From Candidatus Moraniibacteriota bacterium (GTDB lineage Bacteria; Patescibacteriota; Minisyncoccia; Moranbacterales; UBA1568): a DNA stretch of 64,000 nt. Within the stretch, counting starts at the first letter, position 1. Each line of letters starts with the position of its first letter. The stretch lies in the NCBI GenBank assembly GCA_018061645.1, contig JAGOTT010000004.1:4784-68783 (forward strand), read 5' to 3'. Under the pieces are notes generated by a model. The model searched no databases and was not told where the DNA came from. It saw only the letters and a program-made list of their open reading frames with translations. Shown here one piece after another: positions 17,661 to 23,692 of the stretch. A program made the translations under genes and the position numbers.

Positions 17661-19826
17661 ATGACGACTACGGAATTCCGCCGCATCCTCAGCAAGAACG
17701 CTCCCTGGATCATCCCGGCAGCACTTTTTCTTATTGCCCTCGGCATACGGGTCGGATTTTTCATCTCGATGAAGGATGACCCGGTCCTCCTGTATCCGAT
17801 TCTCGACGCCGATTCCTACGCGAAATGGGCGAAACAGATCCTCTCCGGGACATCTTTCACGGAGCATGCCTATTTCACCGAACCCGGCTATGCGTTTCTG
17901 CTTGCCTTTTTCCTTCGCCTGTTCGAAGACGGGGAAACCGCCATCGTATTCTTTCAGATCCTCATCGGAAGTCTGACGCCGGTACTCATCTTCTGTGCCA
18001 CGAAACGGCTCGCCTCATCGATACTGGTCGCCGCGGTTTCCGGATTCCTCGCGACTCTCGCGGCACCGCCTGTCTTCTATGAAGTTCTCCTTCTCAAGAC
18101 TTCCGTCGAATTGTTTCTCCTTTCCATGCTCGCGCTCATCATCGCGGTCTCCTGGGAAAAACGCGACCCGAAACGCTTTTTCGGAATCGGTGTCATAATC
18201 GGCCTCACCGCACTCGTGAAGGCGAACATCCTCCTTGCGGCACCGATACTCGCGATTGCGACGCTTTTCCGAAATAGACGACCGGACAGATATACGGCCT
18301 ACGCGGCAATCGCGTTGATTTTCGGTGTCCTCCTCGCCATTTCTCCCGCTGCTATACGGAATTACTACACGGACGGGTCGCTCACCCTCATAAACGCATC
18401 CGGCGGTCCGAACCTCTACATCGGCGTCTGGGAAGGTGCCGACGGATCGCTCAAGCCGCCGGAATTCATTTCGGTTAATCCGGAACAGGAGGAGGCGACT
18501 TGGCGGGCATTCGCCGAAGCCTCCCTGAACCGGAAGCTTTCCGCGGACCAGGTCTCCGGATTTTGGACGAGCCAGGCAGCTCGGGAAATCATCGCGCATC
18601 CGGTACGGTTCGTCGATCTGACGTTGAAAAAAATCGGTCTCCTCATATCGTCCCGGGTACTCGACGACAACTATTTCCCGGGATACGGTACTGAACGGTT
18701 TCCTCCGCTCGGATACCTCCTGCCGGCATGGATACTCATCATCATGGGGATTCTCGGAACCGTCATCGCGATGACCGATCGGGCACTGCGCGCGCGATGG
18801 CTCCCCGTGGGACTCATAGCGCTCGTCTACGCGGGAACGCTCGTTCTCACGCACATCGCGGAACGGTACCGGCTCGCACTTCTCCCATTCCTGCTTCCCG
18901 GCGCAGGATTGTTCCTGGTCACGATGATCCGCCGTATCCGTTCCGGTTCGTTTTTGCCCATATTCTGGCTCGCGTTTCCATTCCTTATCCTCTCCGGATT
19001 CGCATTCTCATCGGGAGACGGTGCGAGTTCGACATCCGGACCGGACATGAAAATCGCCATCGCAAAGAAAGCATCCGATGCCGATGATCGAAAAGTCGCT
19101 CACTTGCTGGGCGACAGCGCTCTTCGGGAAAATCCCTTTCATGTCCCGTCGCTCCTTTCCACATCCCGCCTCGCGCTCGAGGAAGATCGTTTCGAGGACG
19201 CTCTCTCATATGCCCGCCGCGCACTCCGCGCCGATCCGGAAGCCGGAACCGCCGAGCTCGGCATCGCTTATGAGGCGACCACCGGAACACTCGCGGGAGA
19301 TACGCTTCGCGATTCGATCGAAGCGCTCTCCAGGCCATCCTCAGGAACAGGGAAAATTTCCGACCCGGATTATTGGACCGGTATGGATTTCTTCCGAAAA
19401 CGGGACTTTGAAAATGCTCTTCCATTCTTCGAACGAGCGGCCGCGCGCGATCCGGAAAACATGGCGGCACTCGGCAATCTCGCTACGACGTACAAGAATA
19501 CCGGGAAGCCAGACCTCGCCCTCCCCCTGTTCAAACGGATCATCGAAAAAGACCCATACAATCTTGCTATCCGTTTCAATCTCGCCCAGTTCCACGAAGC
19601 GAAAAAGGATGCGTTCGCGGCAATGAAGGAATACGAGTCGATCCAGACGATCGTCCCCGGATTCCATCTCGTCCGGTTCAACATCGCGGAGCTCGCCCTG
19701 AAACGAAACGACAAAAACCGCGCACGAACCGAGCTCTCGGCGTTCATCGATGAAAACCGCGGTGACCCGCGCAAGGAGCCGCTCGTCCGCGAAGCCGAGA
19801 GAACGCTCGAGCGGATCGGAAAGTGA
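17661..19826 (+). CDS. polytopic membrane glycosyltransferase (PMT/ArnT-like, GT39/GT83 fold) fused to a C-terminal TPR-repeat domain
   Basis: About 450 aa with more than 10 TM helices and PMT-like loops, then TPR-like repeats (AAARDPENMAALGNLATTYKNTGKPDLA...). Confidence 0.6.
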   Translation: MTTTEFRRILSKNAPWIIPAALFLIALGIRVGFFISMKDDPVLLYPILDADSYAKWAKQILSGTSFTEHAYFTEPGYAFLLAFFLRLFEDGETAIVFFQILIGSLTPVLIFCATKRLASSILVAAVSGFLATLAAPPVFYEVLLLKTSVELFLLSMLALIIAVSWEKRDPKRFFGIGVIIGLTALVKANILLAAPILAIATLFRNRRPDRYTAYAAIALIFGVLLAISPAAIRNYYTDGSLTLINASGGPNLYIGVWEGADGSLKPPEFISVNPEQEEATWRAFAEASLNRKLSADQVSGFWTSQAAREIIAHPVRFVDLTLKKIGLLISSRVLDDNYFPGYGTERFPPLGYLLPAWILIIMGILGTVIAMTDRALRARWLPVGLIALVYAGTLVLTHIAERYRLALLPFLLPGAGLFLVTMIRRIRSGSFLPIFWLAFPFLILSGFAFSSGDGASSTSGPDMKIAIAKKASDADDRKVAHLLGDSALRENPFHVPSLLSTSRLALEEDRFEDALSYARRALRADPEAGTAELGIAYEATTGTLAGDTLRDSIEALSRPSSGTGKISDPDYWTGMDFFRKRDFENALPFFERAAARDPENMAALGNLATTYKNTGKPDLALPLFKRIIEKDPYNLAIRFNLAQFHEAKKDAFAAMKEYESIQTIVPGFHLVRFNIAELALKRNDKNRARTELSAFIDENRGDPRKEPLVREAERTLERIGK

Positions 19827-19834
19827 TTTGATTG

Positions 19835-19905
19835 TCGGGGTAAGCGGAATCGAACCGCTCCTACGTGCACCCCATGCACGCGTACTGCCGATATACTATA
19901 CCCCG
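19835..19905 (-). tRNA. tRNA-Pro (anticodon GGG), no encoded CCA
   Basis: Cloverleaf read by hand: acceptor CGGGGTA/TACCCCG, anticodon arm CGTGC-ATGGGGT-GCACG, T-arm AGCGG-TTCGATT-CCGCT. Confidence 0.85.
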
Positions 19906-19976
19906 TTGCAATACATTCCTTGGTACCACGAAATCGGACAAATGAAAAGGAGGTCGTTATTACGACCTCCATGCAG

Positions 19977-20261
19977 CTACCACGGACGAGGGTAAAGAAC
20001 GATTCTCCGTCCCTCAAGGATCGGGATATGCGTCCCCTCGTAGCAGGTGCGAAGCCATCCGCGCAGCTTCGAGGCGAGACCCCTCTCCGAAAGGAGCTTC
20101 TCCTGCCGCTCCTTTTGTTCCCACAGGCGATGCCAACGCGGAGTATCATACTTCACGCTGGCAAGCCGGGTCAGCACATTGTTGTAGTCCGTGATGTGTT
20201 GACCAAGCAGGGCGTTCGCCTCCCGTACGGCGATTGCGGTATTGTCCGGATGATTCTGCAT
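19977..20261 (-). CDS. hypothetical 94-aa protein
   Basis: ATG at 20259-20261 preceded by GGAGGGG. It overlaps the upstream stop as ATGA. A terminator hairpin (19949-19970 plus T-run) follows the stop. Confidence 0.6.
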   Translation of the reverse strand: MQNHPDNTAIAVREANALLGQHITDYNNVLTRLASVKYDTPRWHRLWEQKERQEKLLSERGLASKLRGWLRTCYEGTHIPILEGRRIVLYPRPW

Positions 20262-20485
20262 CAACCCCTCCATGACGAGTGTTTGACCTTGAACTTGTCG
20301 ATGTGATATCCGACAAATCCGCCCTCACCATCCCGACGAACCCCATGGTTATCGAGAAAACCCTCCGGAAGCGTCTTCACGGGACGCTTGCACGTCCCAT
20401 TGCAGAGAACCGCTTTCGCGCAGGTTCTTCCGAATGCCAACAACTGACACTCCGGGTTAAAATCACAGCCCAACTTCTGGCCCAT
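20261..20485 (-). CDS. hypothetical 74-aa Cys-rich protein (C-x5-C-x9-C-x5-C-x3-C)
   Basis: ATG at 20483-20485 preceded by a strong SD AAAAGGAGAGA. The protein begins MGQKLGCDFNPECQLLAFGRTCAKAVLCNGTCKRP... Confidence 0.6.
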   Translation of the reverse strand: MGQKLGCDFNPECQLLAFGRTCAKAVLCNGTCKRPVKTLPEGFLDNHGVRRDGEGGFVGYHIDKFKVKHSSWRG

Positions 20486-20624
20486 TCGTCTCTCCTTTTT
20501 TTGTAAAAACAACGAAACAACAACACAACACCCCGATATTCCGGGAAACCGAAATGGCGGAACCTGTTTCCGCACATTTTCAGACATTATACACCATATT
20601 CTCATTTCCGTCAATGATAGAATC

Positions 20625-20654
20625 AAAAAATCCGCTCTTTCAAGCGGATTTTCT
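20625..20654. terminator. bidirectional rho-independent terminator downstream of ndk
   Basis: AAAAAATCCGCT-CTTTCA-AGCGGATTTTCT. Confidence 0.7.
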
Positions 20655-20688: not shown

Positions 20689-21297
20689 CTACTCCAATAT
20701 TCCGTCCAGGTTCACATCATAAAGTATCTGTTCCGAAACGAGCCGGTATTTGACGATCTCATCCTCCGAAAGCCAGATAGCGATTTCTCGCTCCGCTTCT
20801 TCCGGTTTATCCGAACAATGGACGAGGTTGCGCACCGCACGATTATCGATGGACGAAAGTGCATACGAATCGACGGTCAGGTCACCGCGAAGCGTTCCGA
20901 CATCACTGGTCGCGGGCTCCGTTCCTCCGACAAGCTTCTTCACGATCGCGACGGACTGGTTCCCCTCGACGACCATCGCCAAAACCGGTCCGGAGGTGAA
21001 GAAGTTCACGTTCGCACGGATGATATCCTTGCCATATTCGATCGCCTCCTTCTCGACCGGAAGGCCCTGCGCTTCGCGATCACCGACGATCCGGTTCCCT
21101 TTCGAGAGAAACCATTCGTCATCCTTCGCGTAGTGCGCCCAACACTGATCCTCCTTCGGTACGAGAAACTTCATCGCCGAGATCTTGAGTCCCGTCCGTT
21201 CGATACGACGGATCACTTCGCCCATGAGCCCGCGCTGGACGCCGTCCGGTTTCACGATCACGAACGATCGCTCTTTTTTCGGATGCATGTTCGCCAT
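20689..21297 (-). CDS. ndk: nucleoside diphosphate kinase, long form with an internal insertion
   Basis: ERSFVIVKPDGVQRGLMGEVIRRIERTGLKISAMK. Start is at 21297 or 21288. Confidence 0.8.
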   Translation of the reverse strand: MANMHPKKERSFVIVKPDGVQRGLMGEVIRRIERTGLKISAMKFLVPKEDQCWAHYAKDDEWFLSKGNRIVGDREAQGLPVEKEAIEYGKDIIRANVNFFTSGPVLAMVVEGNQSVAIVKKLVGGTEPATSDVGTLRGDLTVDSYALSSIDNRAVRNLVHCSDKPEEAEREIAIWLSEDEIVKYRLVSEQILYDVNLDGILE

Positions 21298-21362
21298 AAT
21301 ATTCGCATTAAAAAAATCGCCCTCACTTACCGGAATACCACGAAAACACGGCATTGGCAAGT

Positions 21363-22217
21363 CTACCGTTCCGAAAAGACACACCGATTCTCATGCGCAA
21401 GACACCGGTACACGATATCCCCATCGATGTCGGTACGACGGACCGTCGCTCCGACGGCCGCGACACGGGAAAGCACGTCCGGCGACGGATGTCCATACTT
21501 GTTCTCCCCGACGGAAACAACTGCTTCCTCCGGACGGACACGGGATAGGAACAGGTCGCTCGAAGAATGCTTCGACCCGTGGTGCGCGAGCTTGAGTATT
21601 TCGGACGGCAGTGCTTCCGGGAGGAATAATTCTTCCCTCGGGAGATCTCCGGTCAGGAGGAAGTCCGTCTCACCGAAGGAGAACCGCGAGACGATACTTG
21701 TCTCATTGGACTCCCCCGCCACGTGTTCGCCGTCTTCCGGGAAAAGCGTCTCGAGACGCCCGCCTTTCGGAAGCGCGATCGAAAGACCGCGACGAGCGAC
21801 GATGCGTCCAGTATGCCCCTGTGACCCTTCAAGCGCACGCTCGAGAAGCGCGAACACCTCCGATTCCGATCGCACGGAGGTCGAGATATATGTGCCGACG
21901 CGATATCGTGAGAGAAGTTCCGGAAAACCACCGATGTGATCCGCATCCGGATGCGTGGCGACGACAGCCTCGATGGTCCGATCCCAGAACGGAATCTGCC
22001 GCGAGATTCCGGAAAGCAGTACCTTCCCGCTCCGCCCGCCGTCGATGAGGATCTGATTCCCTCCCTGCGAAATCAGGATCGCGTCCCCTTGTCCGACGTC
22101 GAGAAACACCACCTTCGTTTCCCTGGCATTCCTCCACGCGACATACGCAAATATTCCGCCGAGCAGAGCGGCGACAAGAAGTGAAACAAAAATGACCCGA
22201 AAGACCGCCTTTTTCAT
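21363..22217 (-). CDS. comEC: ComEC/Rec2 C-terminal metallo-beta-lactamase-domain protein (separate gene)
   Basis: TM start MKKAVFRVIFVSLLVAALL, then VVFLDVGQGDAILI...HPDADHIGG...LKLAHHGSKHSSS. The ATG at 22215-22217 overlaps the upstream stop as ATGA. Confidence 0.8.
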   Translation of the reverse strand: MKKAVFRVIFVSLLVAALLGGIFAYVAWRNARETKVVFLDVGQGDAILISQGGNQILIDGGRSGKVLLSGISRQIPFWDRTIEAVVATHPDADHIGGFPELLSRYRVGTYISTSVRSESEVFALLERALEGSQGHTGRIVARRGLSIALPKGGRLETLFPEDGEHVAGESNETSIVSRFSFGETDFLLTGDLPREELFLPEALPSEILKLAHHGSKHSSSDLFLSRVRPEEAVVSVGENKYGHPSPDVLSRVAAVGATVRRTDIDGDIVYRCLAHENRCVFSER

Positions 22218-23692
22218 ATCCTCATGATATCCGTATTCCGTTCCGGAAGAAACCCGCCTCTCCAGCGCGCGCGGATCATGATCGCCACAACAACACCGAG
22301 CACGCCATACCAGATGACCGCCTCCGTCCATCCGAAGTCCTGAAGTACTACATCCAACTCCTCGAAAGATGCCGCATACGCGGCGCCGGAGATTATGACA
22401 TGGAGCGACACATACGCCGGAAATCCGAAAACCGTGCCAAGCGTTCCGGATAGCATGCCGGCGACTCCGGCGAGAAACGAGAGGAGCATCGCTATCGGCA
22501 CAAGCGGAAGCAATATCGCGTTCGCGGGAAACGCGGCAAGGGAAAAATGTCCGAAGTTCGCGAAGATGATCGGCAGGATGAAGAGTTCGGCCGCGACCGT
22601 AAGCAGCAGCGCCTCGAGGAATATCTTCAGGAAAAACGGGATTCTTCGAAGGACACGACCAATCGGAGGTGACGCGAGGATGATTCCGGCGGTCGCTGCG
22701 AACGAAAGCAGGAATCCGAGATCGTGACGGATGATGAGCGGGTCGAAGGCGAGCATCACCGCCGCCGCGAAGAGGAGCGCATGGAACGATGCGTACCGTC
22801 GCCCGAAGAGCCATGCGAGGATAAGCGTCGACGCCATGCCGATCGCACGCACCGCGGACGGCGGCGCCCCCGAGACGAACACGAAGGCAAGCGTTCCGAA
22901 GAACGCGAAAATCGCCGCTTTCCGCCTCGGCAGAAAAAGCGCTATCCCGATAAGAAGCAGATACCCCGCGATGATGGAGATATTATACCCCGACACCGCC
23001 ACGACATGAGCGAGCCCTGCGGCACGGAAATCGTCCTTCGTTTCCGCCGGAAGGCGCCCGTCCCCGCCGAGCAGAAGCCCCGCCGCAAGACTCGACTCCG
23101 GCTCCGGCAACGCGCGCATAAGAGATTGTTCGAACCGGTCCGCGAATCGCATGAGCGCGATGGAAAGCGTACGATCCGTATCCCGCTTCTCCCACTCCGG
23201 TTTTTCACAGACAAAGCCGACGCCTCCCTTCGCGTGATACATCTGCCACTCTTCCTCCGGCAAGGAAAGCTCACAGAACAGCCTCCCCTTATCACCGAAG
23301 GAAACCGGCTCCGAAAGAGGGAAACGGACCAGAATCCTCTCTTCAGGACAAGACGTGCCTTCGCAGGATCGGAACGAGACTATCGCGTCCCGGGAAAAAT
23401 CCCTTGCCTCCGGGTTCCGGACGATTTCCACCTCACCGGACACCCGGCCGGTTTCCGGCAATCCGCGCCAATAGATCTCTTCTTCCCCCGCAATGAACCA
23501 TCCTGTCGAAAATGCAAATGCCAGAAAGAGAAAAATCGCCCCACGACGATCCGGCCATGCACCGAGCGCGGCGAAGCCAAGCGCGAACCCGAGGAGCGGA
23601 CCGACCGAGGAACCCCCATACGAAAACGTACCAAGCGCGATGCCCAGTACGAAAAGGATGAGAACGAGACGGAACACCGCGGAAACGGACAT
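22214..23692 (-). CDS. comEC: ComEC/Rec2 N-terminal competence (DUF4131 + Competence) membrane channel domain protein
   Basis: 492-aa polytopic protein with ...AGLAHVVAVSGYNISIIAG... Confidence 0.8.
   Translation of the reverse strand: MSVSAVFRLVLILFVLGIALGTFSYGGSSVGPLLGFALGFAALGAWPDRRGAIFLFLAFAFSTGWFIAGEEEIYWRGLPETGRVSGEVEIVRNPEARDFSRDAIVSFRSCEGTSCPEERILVRFPLSEPVSFGDKGRLFCELSLPEEEWQMYHAKGGVGFVCEKPEWEKRDTDRTLSIALMRFADRFEQSLMRALPEPESSLAAGLLLGGDGRLPAETKDDFRAAGLAHVVAVSGYNISIIAGYLLLIGIALFLPRRKAAIFAFFGTLAFVFVSGAPPSAVRAIGMASTLILAWLFGRRYASFHALLFAAAVMLAFDPLIIRHDLGFLLSFAATAGIILASPPIGRVLRRIPFFLKIFLEALLLTVAAELFILPIIFANFGHFSLAAFPANAILLPLVPIAMLLSFLAGVAGMLSGTLGTVFGFPAYVSLHVIISGAAYAASFEELDVVLQDFGWTEAVIWYGVLGVVVAIMIRARWRGGFLPERNTDIMRI

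Follow-up and report, generated by a model that had tools for sequence, protein, structure and literature searches.

A two-gene unit between ndk and tRNA-Pro(GGG)

We analyzed a 64,000-nucleotide stretch of DNA from Candidatus Moraniibacteriota bacterium (assembly GCA_018061645.1, contig JAGOTT010000004.1, positions 4,784 to 68,783; hereafter the window, with position 1 at its first letter), focusing on two small minus-strand open reading frames, ORF1 and ORF2, that lie between ndk and the gene for tRNA-Pro(GGG). ORF1 encodes a cysteine-rich protein and ORF2 a protein that is predicted to form a helical hairpin. In the direction of transcription the unit consists of a promoter, a leader, ORF1, ORF2 and a terminator (Table 1), and the hairpin of the ndk terminator separates ndk from the pair. 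A preliminary description, made from the sequence alone, had presented the pair as a self-contained, coupled operon with its own upstream region. The coordinates, both Shine-Dalgarno (SD) sequences and the terminator were borne out, and the upstream region was found to hold a near-consensus promoter. The same description had placed a four-base ATGA overlap at the junction of the two genes; stop and start codons do overlap there, as TGATG, in which the ATG of ORF2 (20261) shares its A with the TGA of ORF1, so that the overlap is one base.

The start of ORF2 differs from the public annotation. The NCBI entry MBP9751553.1 (hypothetical protein, 98 aa) begins at an in-frame ATG at 20273, four codons too early, while all ORF2 homologues start at the equivalent of the ATG at 20261, immediately after the SD, which gives a protein of 94 aa.

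Table 1. Features of the ORF1-ORF2 locus in window coordinates.
Feature	Position	Strand	Basis or remark
ndk terminator, hairpin and T-run AATCCGCTTGAAAGAGCGGATTTTTT	~20625..20650	minus	read directly from the sequence
Sigma-70-type promoter, TTGACG-17 nt-TATAAT	20586..20614	minus	11 of 12 consensus positions
5' leader, ~95 nt	20486..20580	minus	folding; two hairpins and a U-rich tract
SD of ORF1, GGAGAG	20495..20490	minus	within AAAAAAAGGAGAGAC, preceding ORF1
ORF1, 74 aa	20261..20485	minus	ORF list; conserved frame
SD of ORF2, GGAGGGG	20265..20271	minus	lies within the final ORF1 codons, which encode the conserved C terminus SSWRG
ORF2, 94 aa, allelic type A	19977..20261	minus	ORF list; conserved start
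Intrinsic terminator, GGAGGTCG-TAATAA-CGACCTCC followed by TTTTCATTT	19939..19970	minus	9-bp G+C-rich hairpin
Invariant block TGGTACCAAGGA with palindrome TGGTACCA	19917..19928	minus	between terminator and tRNA gene; identical in eight lineages
tRNA-Pro(GGG)	19834..19905	minus	downstream neighbor in every lineage

The pair occupies one fixed slot and keeps its expression signals

Word-indexed searches of 5.8 billion proteins returned close relatives only, and a scan of GTDB genomes contributed one further genome; two scans of Joint Genome Institute (JGI) metagenomes found no relatives. The comparison covers eight lineages in all, every one of them found through homology to the pair, with L006 and L007 counted as a single lineage (L006/7). 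All come from one small Moranbacteria clade, and in all eight the cassette, composed of the pair or of one longer gene, sits in the same slot. In each of the six lineages with two genes (the window, L005, L006/7, L009, L001 and L016; hereafter the split lineages), ORF1 is directly followed by ORF2 in a shared context: (ftsA-ftsZ-nrdR)-comEC-MBL-ndk-[ORF1-ORF2]-tRNA-Pro(GGG)-(PMT_2/TPR)-L28-M50-S12-S7-fusA-tuf. A tblastn search of the 64-kb window revealed no paralogue of the pair.

The preliminary description had likened the compact, coupled architecture beside a tRNA gene to toxin-antitoxin or defense modules or to small regulatory pairs. No integrase or mobile-element genes are present in the neighborhood of the pair, its G+C content is that of the neighboring genes with no shift in composition, and its place is a fixed core slot on the 5' side of the tRNA. 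We therefore rejected an island integrated at the tRNA; the proximity reflects conserved synteny, not an integration site.

ORF1 and ORF2 are real genes under purifying selection. The ratio of nonsynonymous to synonymous substitution rates (dN/dS) was 0.10 for ORF1 (window versus L006), and for ORF2 it was 0.13 (window versus L005) and 0.26 (L006 versus L009); the corresponding values for ndk were 0.02-0.05 among the closer lineages. That the genes are real follows from these ratios together with the retention of frames, start codons and SDs in DNA that is saturated with substitutions.

The promoter, both SDs and the terminator were kept across six to eight lineages. Only four sites as good as the promoter of the pair (-35 element at 20614..20609, -10 element at 20591..20586) occur in the whole window. 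Its motif, TTGAC...(G/C)GTATAAT, was present in 7 of 8 lineages, with the stretch examined in L015 covering the -10 element only, and in related loci an equivalent of the ndk terminator, GCGGATTTTT, lies upstream of the promoter. The terminator was found in 8 of 8 lineages; its outer GGAG/CTCC stem and T-run are invariant, and the inner stems differ in sequence but stay complementary.

At the junction of the two genes, five lineages retain GGA(G/A)GGG followed by an ATG, with stop-to-start offsets that differ among them (-1, +1, +2, +2 and +3); the L016 junction has the same ORF2 SD. Because the offsets vary and yet each junction has its SD and ATG, the arrangement points to translational coupling by re-initiation. 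The differing offsets and the separate SD and ATG in five lineages ruled out a programmed frameshift, or a sequencing or assembly error, as the origin of the split.

A four-cysteine protein and a predicted helical-hairpin protein

The window ORF1 contains five cysteines spaced C7-x5-C13-x8-C22-x5-C28-x3-C32. The preliminary description had reported all five, with a second gap of nine residues that is in fact eight, and had counted C28 as part of the pattern; C28 and an occasional C18 vary among homologues. C7, C13, C22 and C32 (C-x5-C-x8-C-x9-C) are invariant in the six split lineages. The metal or redox site suggested there is plausible, as four cysteines also recur at the N terminus of the longer proteins described below. 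We infer from this pattern that the four-Cys module binds metal, most likely Zn or an Fe-S cluster. ORF1 is basic, with an isoelectric point (pI) of 9.2 in the window and of 8.6-9.7 across homologues.

Two other readings of the cysteines were rejected. The C-x8-C-x5-C-x3-C spacing of the window protein recalls a CCCH-like zinc finger, but this would include C28, which varies, and a lipoprotein or signal peptide at KLGC would need a hydrophobic region before the cysteine, which is absent from these hydrophilic proteins. In L001 the ORF1 homologue (GCA_021821305.1, contig JAKACP010000001.1, 5769..5999; 76 aa, four cysteines, 46-48% identical) is intact and carries no gene call in the assembly, and its exact sequence is absent from a collection of 15 billion proteins.

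The AlphaFold2 model of ORF2 had a mean predicted local distance difference test score (pLDDT) of 81.2, which is good given an alignment of three sequences. In the model, residues 5-34 and 41-59 form the two helices of a long hairpin; after them come a short helix and, at the C terminus, a beta-hairpin with LYPxP at its end. Hydrophobic segments are absent, and grand average of hydropathy (GRAVY) values are negative, as for soluble proteins.

A single gene fills the slot in two further lineages

We searched 1.84 billion cluster representatives with an ORF2 profile in HMMER and obtained matches to four proteins. Two were ordinary ORF2 homologues; the other two, P0009 and P0010, were longer, and the ORF2-like region formed their C-terminal halves (P0009, 173 aa, E 1.8e-5; P0010, 176 aa, E 4.3e-5). 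In the reverse direction, tblastn searches of the window with P0009 and P0010 matched ORF2 with E values of 3e-9 and 6e-9. Each of the two proteins starts with four cysteines within 31 residues (MCKLISNECHWDRKEKNTRACTFAQTYPDACPRS), spaced C-x6-C-x11-C-x9-C. The gene for P0009 lies in the order ndk-[gene]-tRNA-Pro(GGG)-L28-M50, and that for P0010 is likewise followed by tRNA-Pro(GGG); a single gene of 173-176 aa fills the slot in two further lineages. ORF1 and ORF2 add up to 168 aa. The fused forms are basic (pI 9.7-10.1).

The pair is best read as the split counterpart of this single-chain protein, on the basis of the similarity of ORF2 to the C-terminal half and, for ORF1, of position, order, length and the presence of four cysteines. 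If so, ORF1 and ORF2 probably act as a complex, and the predicted form of that complex is an ORF1-ORF2 heterodimer. Across split and fused proteins the invariant columns are three cysteines (all four in a manual register), one R and otherwise G, L, W or P. These columns are structural, with no conserved polar or catalytic residues among them, which makes an enzyme unlikely.

The comparison is of the Rosetta-stone kind, in which a pair of neighboring genes in some genomes has a single gene as its counterpart at that slot in others; the neighboring comEC is split in a similar way. It differs from the usual case in that the statistics support the ORF2 half only and in that the split state is discordant with the flanks.

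The cassette is hypervariable and has probably been exchanged between lineages

Between the window and L006/7, protein identity was 96% for NDK, 87% for MBL, 87-90% for ComEC, 82-85% for PMT/TPR and 84% for ORF1, as against 38% for ORF2. Sliding windows along the DNA of the window and L006 gave 80-95% identity upstream and 88-100% over the terminator and tRNA, with a fall to 40-55% over exactly ORF2. L005 and L006 are mutual closest relatives (PMT 88-91% identical), and between them the proportion of synonymous differences (pS) was 0.29 in PMT, 0.40 in ndk and 0.78 in ORF2. As the excess extends to the synonymous sites of close relatives, it is not merely a matter of fast protein evolution. 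Synonymous divergence of ORF1 was also raised in several pairs of lineages.

A similar boundary was seen between a split and a fused locus. L001 (split) and L014 (fused) are sisters by their flanks (ComEC 77-79% identical, MBL 80% over the aligned domain), and their DNA is 88-100% identical in ndk, the tRNA gene and L28 and 30-50% identical from the middle of the leader to the terminator. Cassette DNA is thus 30-55% identical between genomes whose flanks are 80-100% identical.

ORF2 sequences fell into two types. Type A (the window, L005, L001 and L016) is 62-87% identical within itself, type B (L006/7 and L009) is 67% identical, and identity between the types is 35-43%. Type B proteins are acidic to neutral, with pI values of 6.1-6.7. 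The flanks group differently: L005 and L006 together with the window, L009 outside them, and L001 with L014. The split or fused state is also independent of flank relationships, L001 being split and its sister L014 fused. Since the cassette types are discordant with the flanks, allelic replacement is implied. Most simply, the slot would harbor several allelic classes of old origin; purifying selection acts on each of them, and homologous recombination would have moved them between lineages. The recombination arms would be the promoter with the first bases of the leader and, at the opposite end, the terminator/tRNA block, where the conserved TGGTACCAAGGA block flanks the variable cassette on its right.

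Searches against known families

At a cutoff of E<=10, neither ORF1 nor ORF2 matched an entry of Pfam, NCBIfam, PADLOC or PHROGs, in agreement with the preliminary description, which could name no family for them. P0009, P0010 and P0007 were scanned against Pfam alone; over all these family searches the single match within the cutoff was to DUF4568 (E 0.16), a chance match. Profile searches of the PDB yielded chance matches only, with E values of at least 0.17. With Foldseek, the best E values were 0.68 (PDB) and 0.26 (BFVD) for the ORF2 model and 1.4 (PDB) for the ORF1 model, and the top matches were generic helical hairpins. Two scans of viral contigs, and tblastn searches of phages with ORF2 and of plasmids with ORF1, revealed no relatives, and a literature search on cysteine-rich proteins of Moranbacteria found nothing relevant.

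Individual families were also compared with the pair. Small Cys4 zinc proteins (zinc ribbons and the DksA/TraR C4 finger with its coiled-coil hairpin) resemble it in combining four conserved cysteines with a long helical hairpin and in being basic overall. They have CxxC or CxxxxC knuckles, however, which are absent here, where the spacings are 5/8/9 or 6/11/9 and the Cys module precedes the hairpin; nor is there any similarity in Pfam, NCBIfam or PDB. The cysteine spacing of ORF1 differs from that of WhiB-like Fe-S proteins (C-x(n)-C-x2-C-x5-C), and Pfam gives no match to them. For WXG100/Esx proteins, the hairpin loop of ORF2 (residues 35-40) is without W-x-G, Pfam again gives no match, and ORF1 is not a hairpin paralogue. 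Ribosomal and universal housekeeping families have no NCBIfam or Pfam match in the pair, and the slow, vertical evolution of such families contrasts with cassette DNA that is 30-55% identical where the flanks are 80-100% identical. A placement of both proteins in known housekeeping families, or a pair that was not co-conserved in other genomes, had been named in the preliminary description as grounds for abandoning its view; neither applies, since no such family emerged from the searches and both genes are conserved together.

Interpretation and alternatives

We propose that the two coupled genes each encode a chain of a single small protein, soluble and non-enzymatic, that functions by binding a partner and is carried on a hypervariable, exchanged cassette, an account to which we give an even chance of being correct. 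Transcription would run from the strong conserved promoter through the structured leader to the unit's own terminator, and the position of the ORF2 SD within the last ORF1 codons would cause both chains to be made together. The chains would then assemble, the four-Cys N-terminal module (with Zn or Fe-S most likely) joining the helical-hairpin/beta-hairpin module, and some sister lineages would make the same protein as one chain of 173-176 aa. The slot would hold three types with deep divergence between them, namely split A, split B and fused, and homologous recombination through the conserved flanks would exchange them. The protein would act by binding a protein or a nucleic acid, with diversifying or balancing selection falling on the identity or specificity of that partner. 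Catalysis or a universal housekeeping role is unlikely.

Several observations weigh against this account. ORF1 does not sort by ORF2 type: a genome of type A and one of type B have ORF1 proteins that are 84% identical, where a tight cognate interface between the two chains would more naturally co-diversify. An hhalign comparison of ORF1 with the fused N-terminal half placed RTCAKAVLCNGTCKRP on RACTFAQTYPDACPRS with an E value of 0.19, and a shuffle test of the same correspondence was not significant (z 1.0 and -0.1), which leaves position, order, length and the four shared cysteines as the only links between ORF1 and the fused N terminus. The AlphaFold2 model of ORF1 is too poor (pLDDT 60.7) for the geometry of the four cysteines to be read from it. 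The case for metal binding is weakened by the cysteine spacings, 5/8/9 in the split and 6/11/9 in the fused form, which match no known metal-site signature. Finally, there are only eight lineages, and genomes with an empty slot would be missed, so the impression that the cassette is always present is biased.

The absence of significant similarity between ORF1 and the fused N-terminal halves would be expected if ORF1 and ORF2 were two independent small proteins that share an operon and if the 173-176 aa proteins joined an ORF2-like domain to an unrelated Cys-rich N terminus. The different divergence histories of ORF1 and ORF2 fit this view as well. It does not explain the strict adjacency and conserved coupling in six lineages, or why the fused gene has the same slot, nearly the summed length (168 versus 173-176 aa) and four cysteines at the same end; by a rough estimate, at a Cys frequency of ~1%, four cysteines in ~31 residues would arise by chance with a probability of ~3e-4. 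We regard independence as improbable. The possibility that the ORFs are spurious and that the region is non-coding spacer or encodes a small RNA has in its favor that short ORFs are common in DNA of 55% G+C and that the other strand has overlapping ORFs, but it is effectively refuted by the dN/dS range of 0.10-0.26 and by the conservation of frames, starts and SDs across substitution-saturated lineages; Rfam gave no match either. A third alternative is a housekeeping or regulatory factor peculiar to the clade, for instance a small basic protein that attaches to RNA polymerase, ribosomes or the nucleoid and is possibly autorepressing, whose divergence reflects low constraint. The strong conserved promoter, strong SD and structured leader would suit such a factor, as would the basic pI of ORF1 and of the fused forms and a slot among cell-division, ndk, tRNA and ribosomal-protein genes that has been kept in a reduced genome (826-kb contig). 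Relaxed constraint, however, cannot yield synonymous divergence that is far above that of the flanks and sharply bounded, and type B ORF2 is acidic to neutral. An exhaustive profile search found no relatives beyond one small clade, and no ribosomal, RNA-polymerase-associated or DNA-binding family was matched. A role of this kind seems unlikely to us.

Resemblance to a toxin-antitoxin or defense module was the suggestion of the preliminary description, and it found no backing in homology or fold. As a type II-like toxin-antitoxin or conflict module, the pair would consist of a non-enzymatic toxin and a neutralizer that binds it, and the fused form would be a single-chain toxin-antitoxin; fused toxin-antitoxin proteins such as CapRel and EzeT exist, and fusion is compatible with this idea. 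The architecture fits, with two small, adjacent, co-transcribed and coupled genes in a transcription unit with its own promoter and terminator, and so do the extremely fast evolution, the allelic classes swapped between lineages while the flanks are conserved, and the very narrow, lineage-specific range. Against it, searches of Pfam, PADLOC, NCBIfam and PHROGs returned no toxin, antitoxin or defense model with E<=10 (PADLOC-DB gave 0 defense families for either protein), the PDB offered no fold match, and neither a recognized toxin family or fold nor an antitoxin DNA-binding domain (RHH, HTH, AbrB or Phd) was detected. Split and fused forms together conserve no polar or catalytic residues. Toxin-antitoxin systems are patchy and mobile in distribution, whereas this locus occurs as one copy at a constant place among core housekeeping genes, with no mobile-element genes around it, in the same slot in all eight lineages (loci that were found by homology to the pair); phage or plasmid relatives were not found, and ORF1 does not co-diversify with ORF2 type. 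Taken together, this reading is decidedly unlikely.

Pherotype or specificity-group loci such as agr and comCD, in which diverged alleles are exchanged within conserved flanks, offer another parallel to the cassette, by analogy only. The likeness lies in a sharply bounded hypervariable segment, in deeply diverged allele classes that are discordant with the flanks and in purifying selection within each class. In contrast to those loci, genes for a processing enzyme, a receptor kinase or a transporter are missing from the neighborhood, the products of the pair have no signal peptide and appear cytoplasmic, and there is no relation in sequence. Loci under conflict or recognition-type selection evolve as this cassette does, and by that comparison a conflict-type role is possible. 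In its strongest form this would be a new specificity or conflict cassette, encoding a Cys4 plus helical-hairpin binder, split or fused, with ancient alleles held by balancing selection and shuffled by recombination through conserved arms. We consider that form unlikely, and possible roles for it would be a non-enzymatic toxin-antitoxin, an anti-phage module or kin or host recognition in episymbiotic bacteria of the candidate phyla radiation (CPR).

The window comes from a metagenome-assembled genome of a CPR bacterium, Candidatus Moranbacteria. Clade-enriched CPR families have been characterized as "primarily hypothetical proteins" (PMC6744442). The pair is an uncharacterized family without a match to any known family, a common situation in CPR genomes. 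What lifts it above an average hypothetical pair is the split/fused polymorphism combined with the exchanged cassette. The two-chain and one-chain forms permit a direct test of complex formation, and the four-Cys site gives a handle for metal-binding tests, where few clade-restricted CPR families offer experimental handles. Moreover, a hypervariable cassette with sharp boundaries inside a conserved core is a population-genetic sign of diversifying or balancing selection, and reports of such signs from CPR genomes are rare. If a conflict or recognition role is correct, the pair would be a new small-protein system from an uncultivated lineage with a reduced genome; if it is not, the pair would be one more hypothetical protein restricted to its lineage, though with an evolutionary history out of the ordinary.

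Leader, flanking block and neighboring genes

The leader is predicted to fold into a 5'-terminal hairpin (GCGGAA/TTCCGC, 20573..20557) and a second hairpin (CCCGG/CGGGG, 20546..20531), followed by a U-rich tract that is able to pair with the A-rich SD region. This two-hairpin layout recurs in each lineage with differing sequences, although the folding score is modest (z ~ -2) and the consensus fold is weak. No Rfam family matched the leader. A riboswitch or other known leader was rejected on these two grounds; a function in mRNA stabilization or translational control is suggested by the layout. At the promoter of the pair no palindromic operator was identified. We also considered a direct-repeat operator, GAAA(A)TG(G)TG, flanking the -10 element and dropped it, as the motif definition was too loose and support was absent.

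The stretch between terminator and tRNA (window 19917..19948, minus strand) is better conserved than the protein genes. Two segments, CCTCCTTTTC(A/T)TTT and TGGTACCAA(G/A)GA, the latter holding the 8-nt palindrome TGGTACCA, are invariant in 8 of 8 lineages (the window, L001, L005, L006, L009, L014, L015 and L016), and TGGTACCAAGGA has one exact copy in the window. The stretch could serve as the promoter of the tRNA gene, in processing of the tRNA or as a site at which a protein binds. For tRNA-Pro itself no good sigma-70 promoter is evident, and read-through from the promoter of the pair is conceivable.

On the upstream side, NDK (window 20689..21300, minus strand) has 202 aa in all related genomes, which seems longer than usual for the enzyme; it is 95-96% identical among close lineages, unlike the adjoining cassette. 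ComEC is encoded by two overlapping genes in the window (21363..23692, minus strand) and in all related loci, with the Competence domain at 23692..22214 and Lactamase_B at ~22217..21363, and is thus another split gene nearby. On the other side, a gene for a 721-aa PMT_2 glycosyltransferase/TPR protein (window 17661..19826, plus strand) lies between tRNA-Pro and L28 in the window, L006 and L009. It is absent from L001 and L014, in which L28 directly follows the tRNA, and the L005 contig stops before L28. The region 3' of the tRNA carries the PMT_2/TPR gene as a variable insertion.

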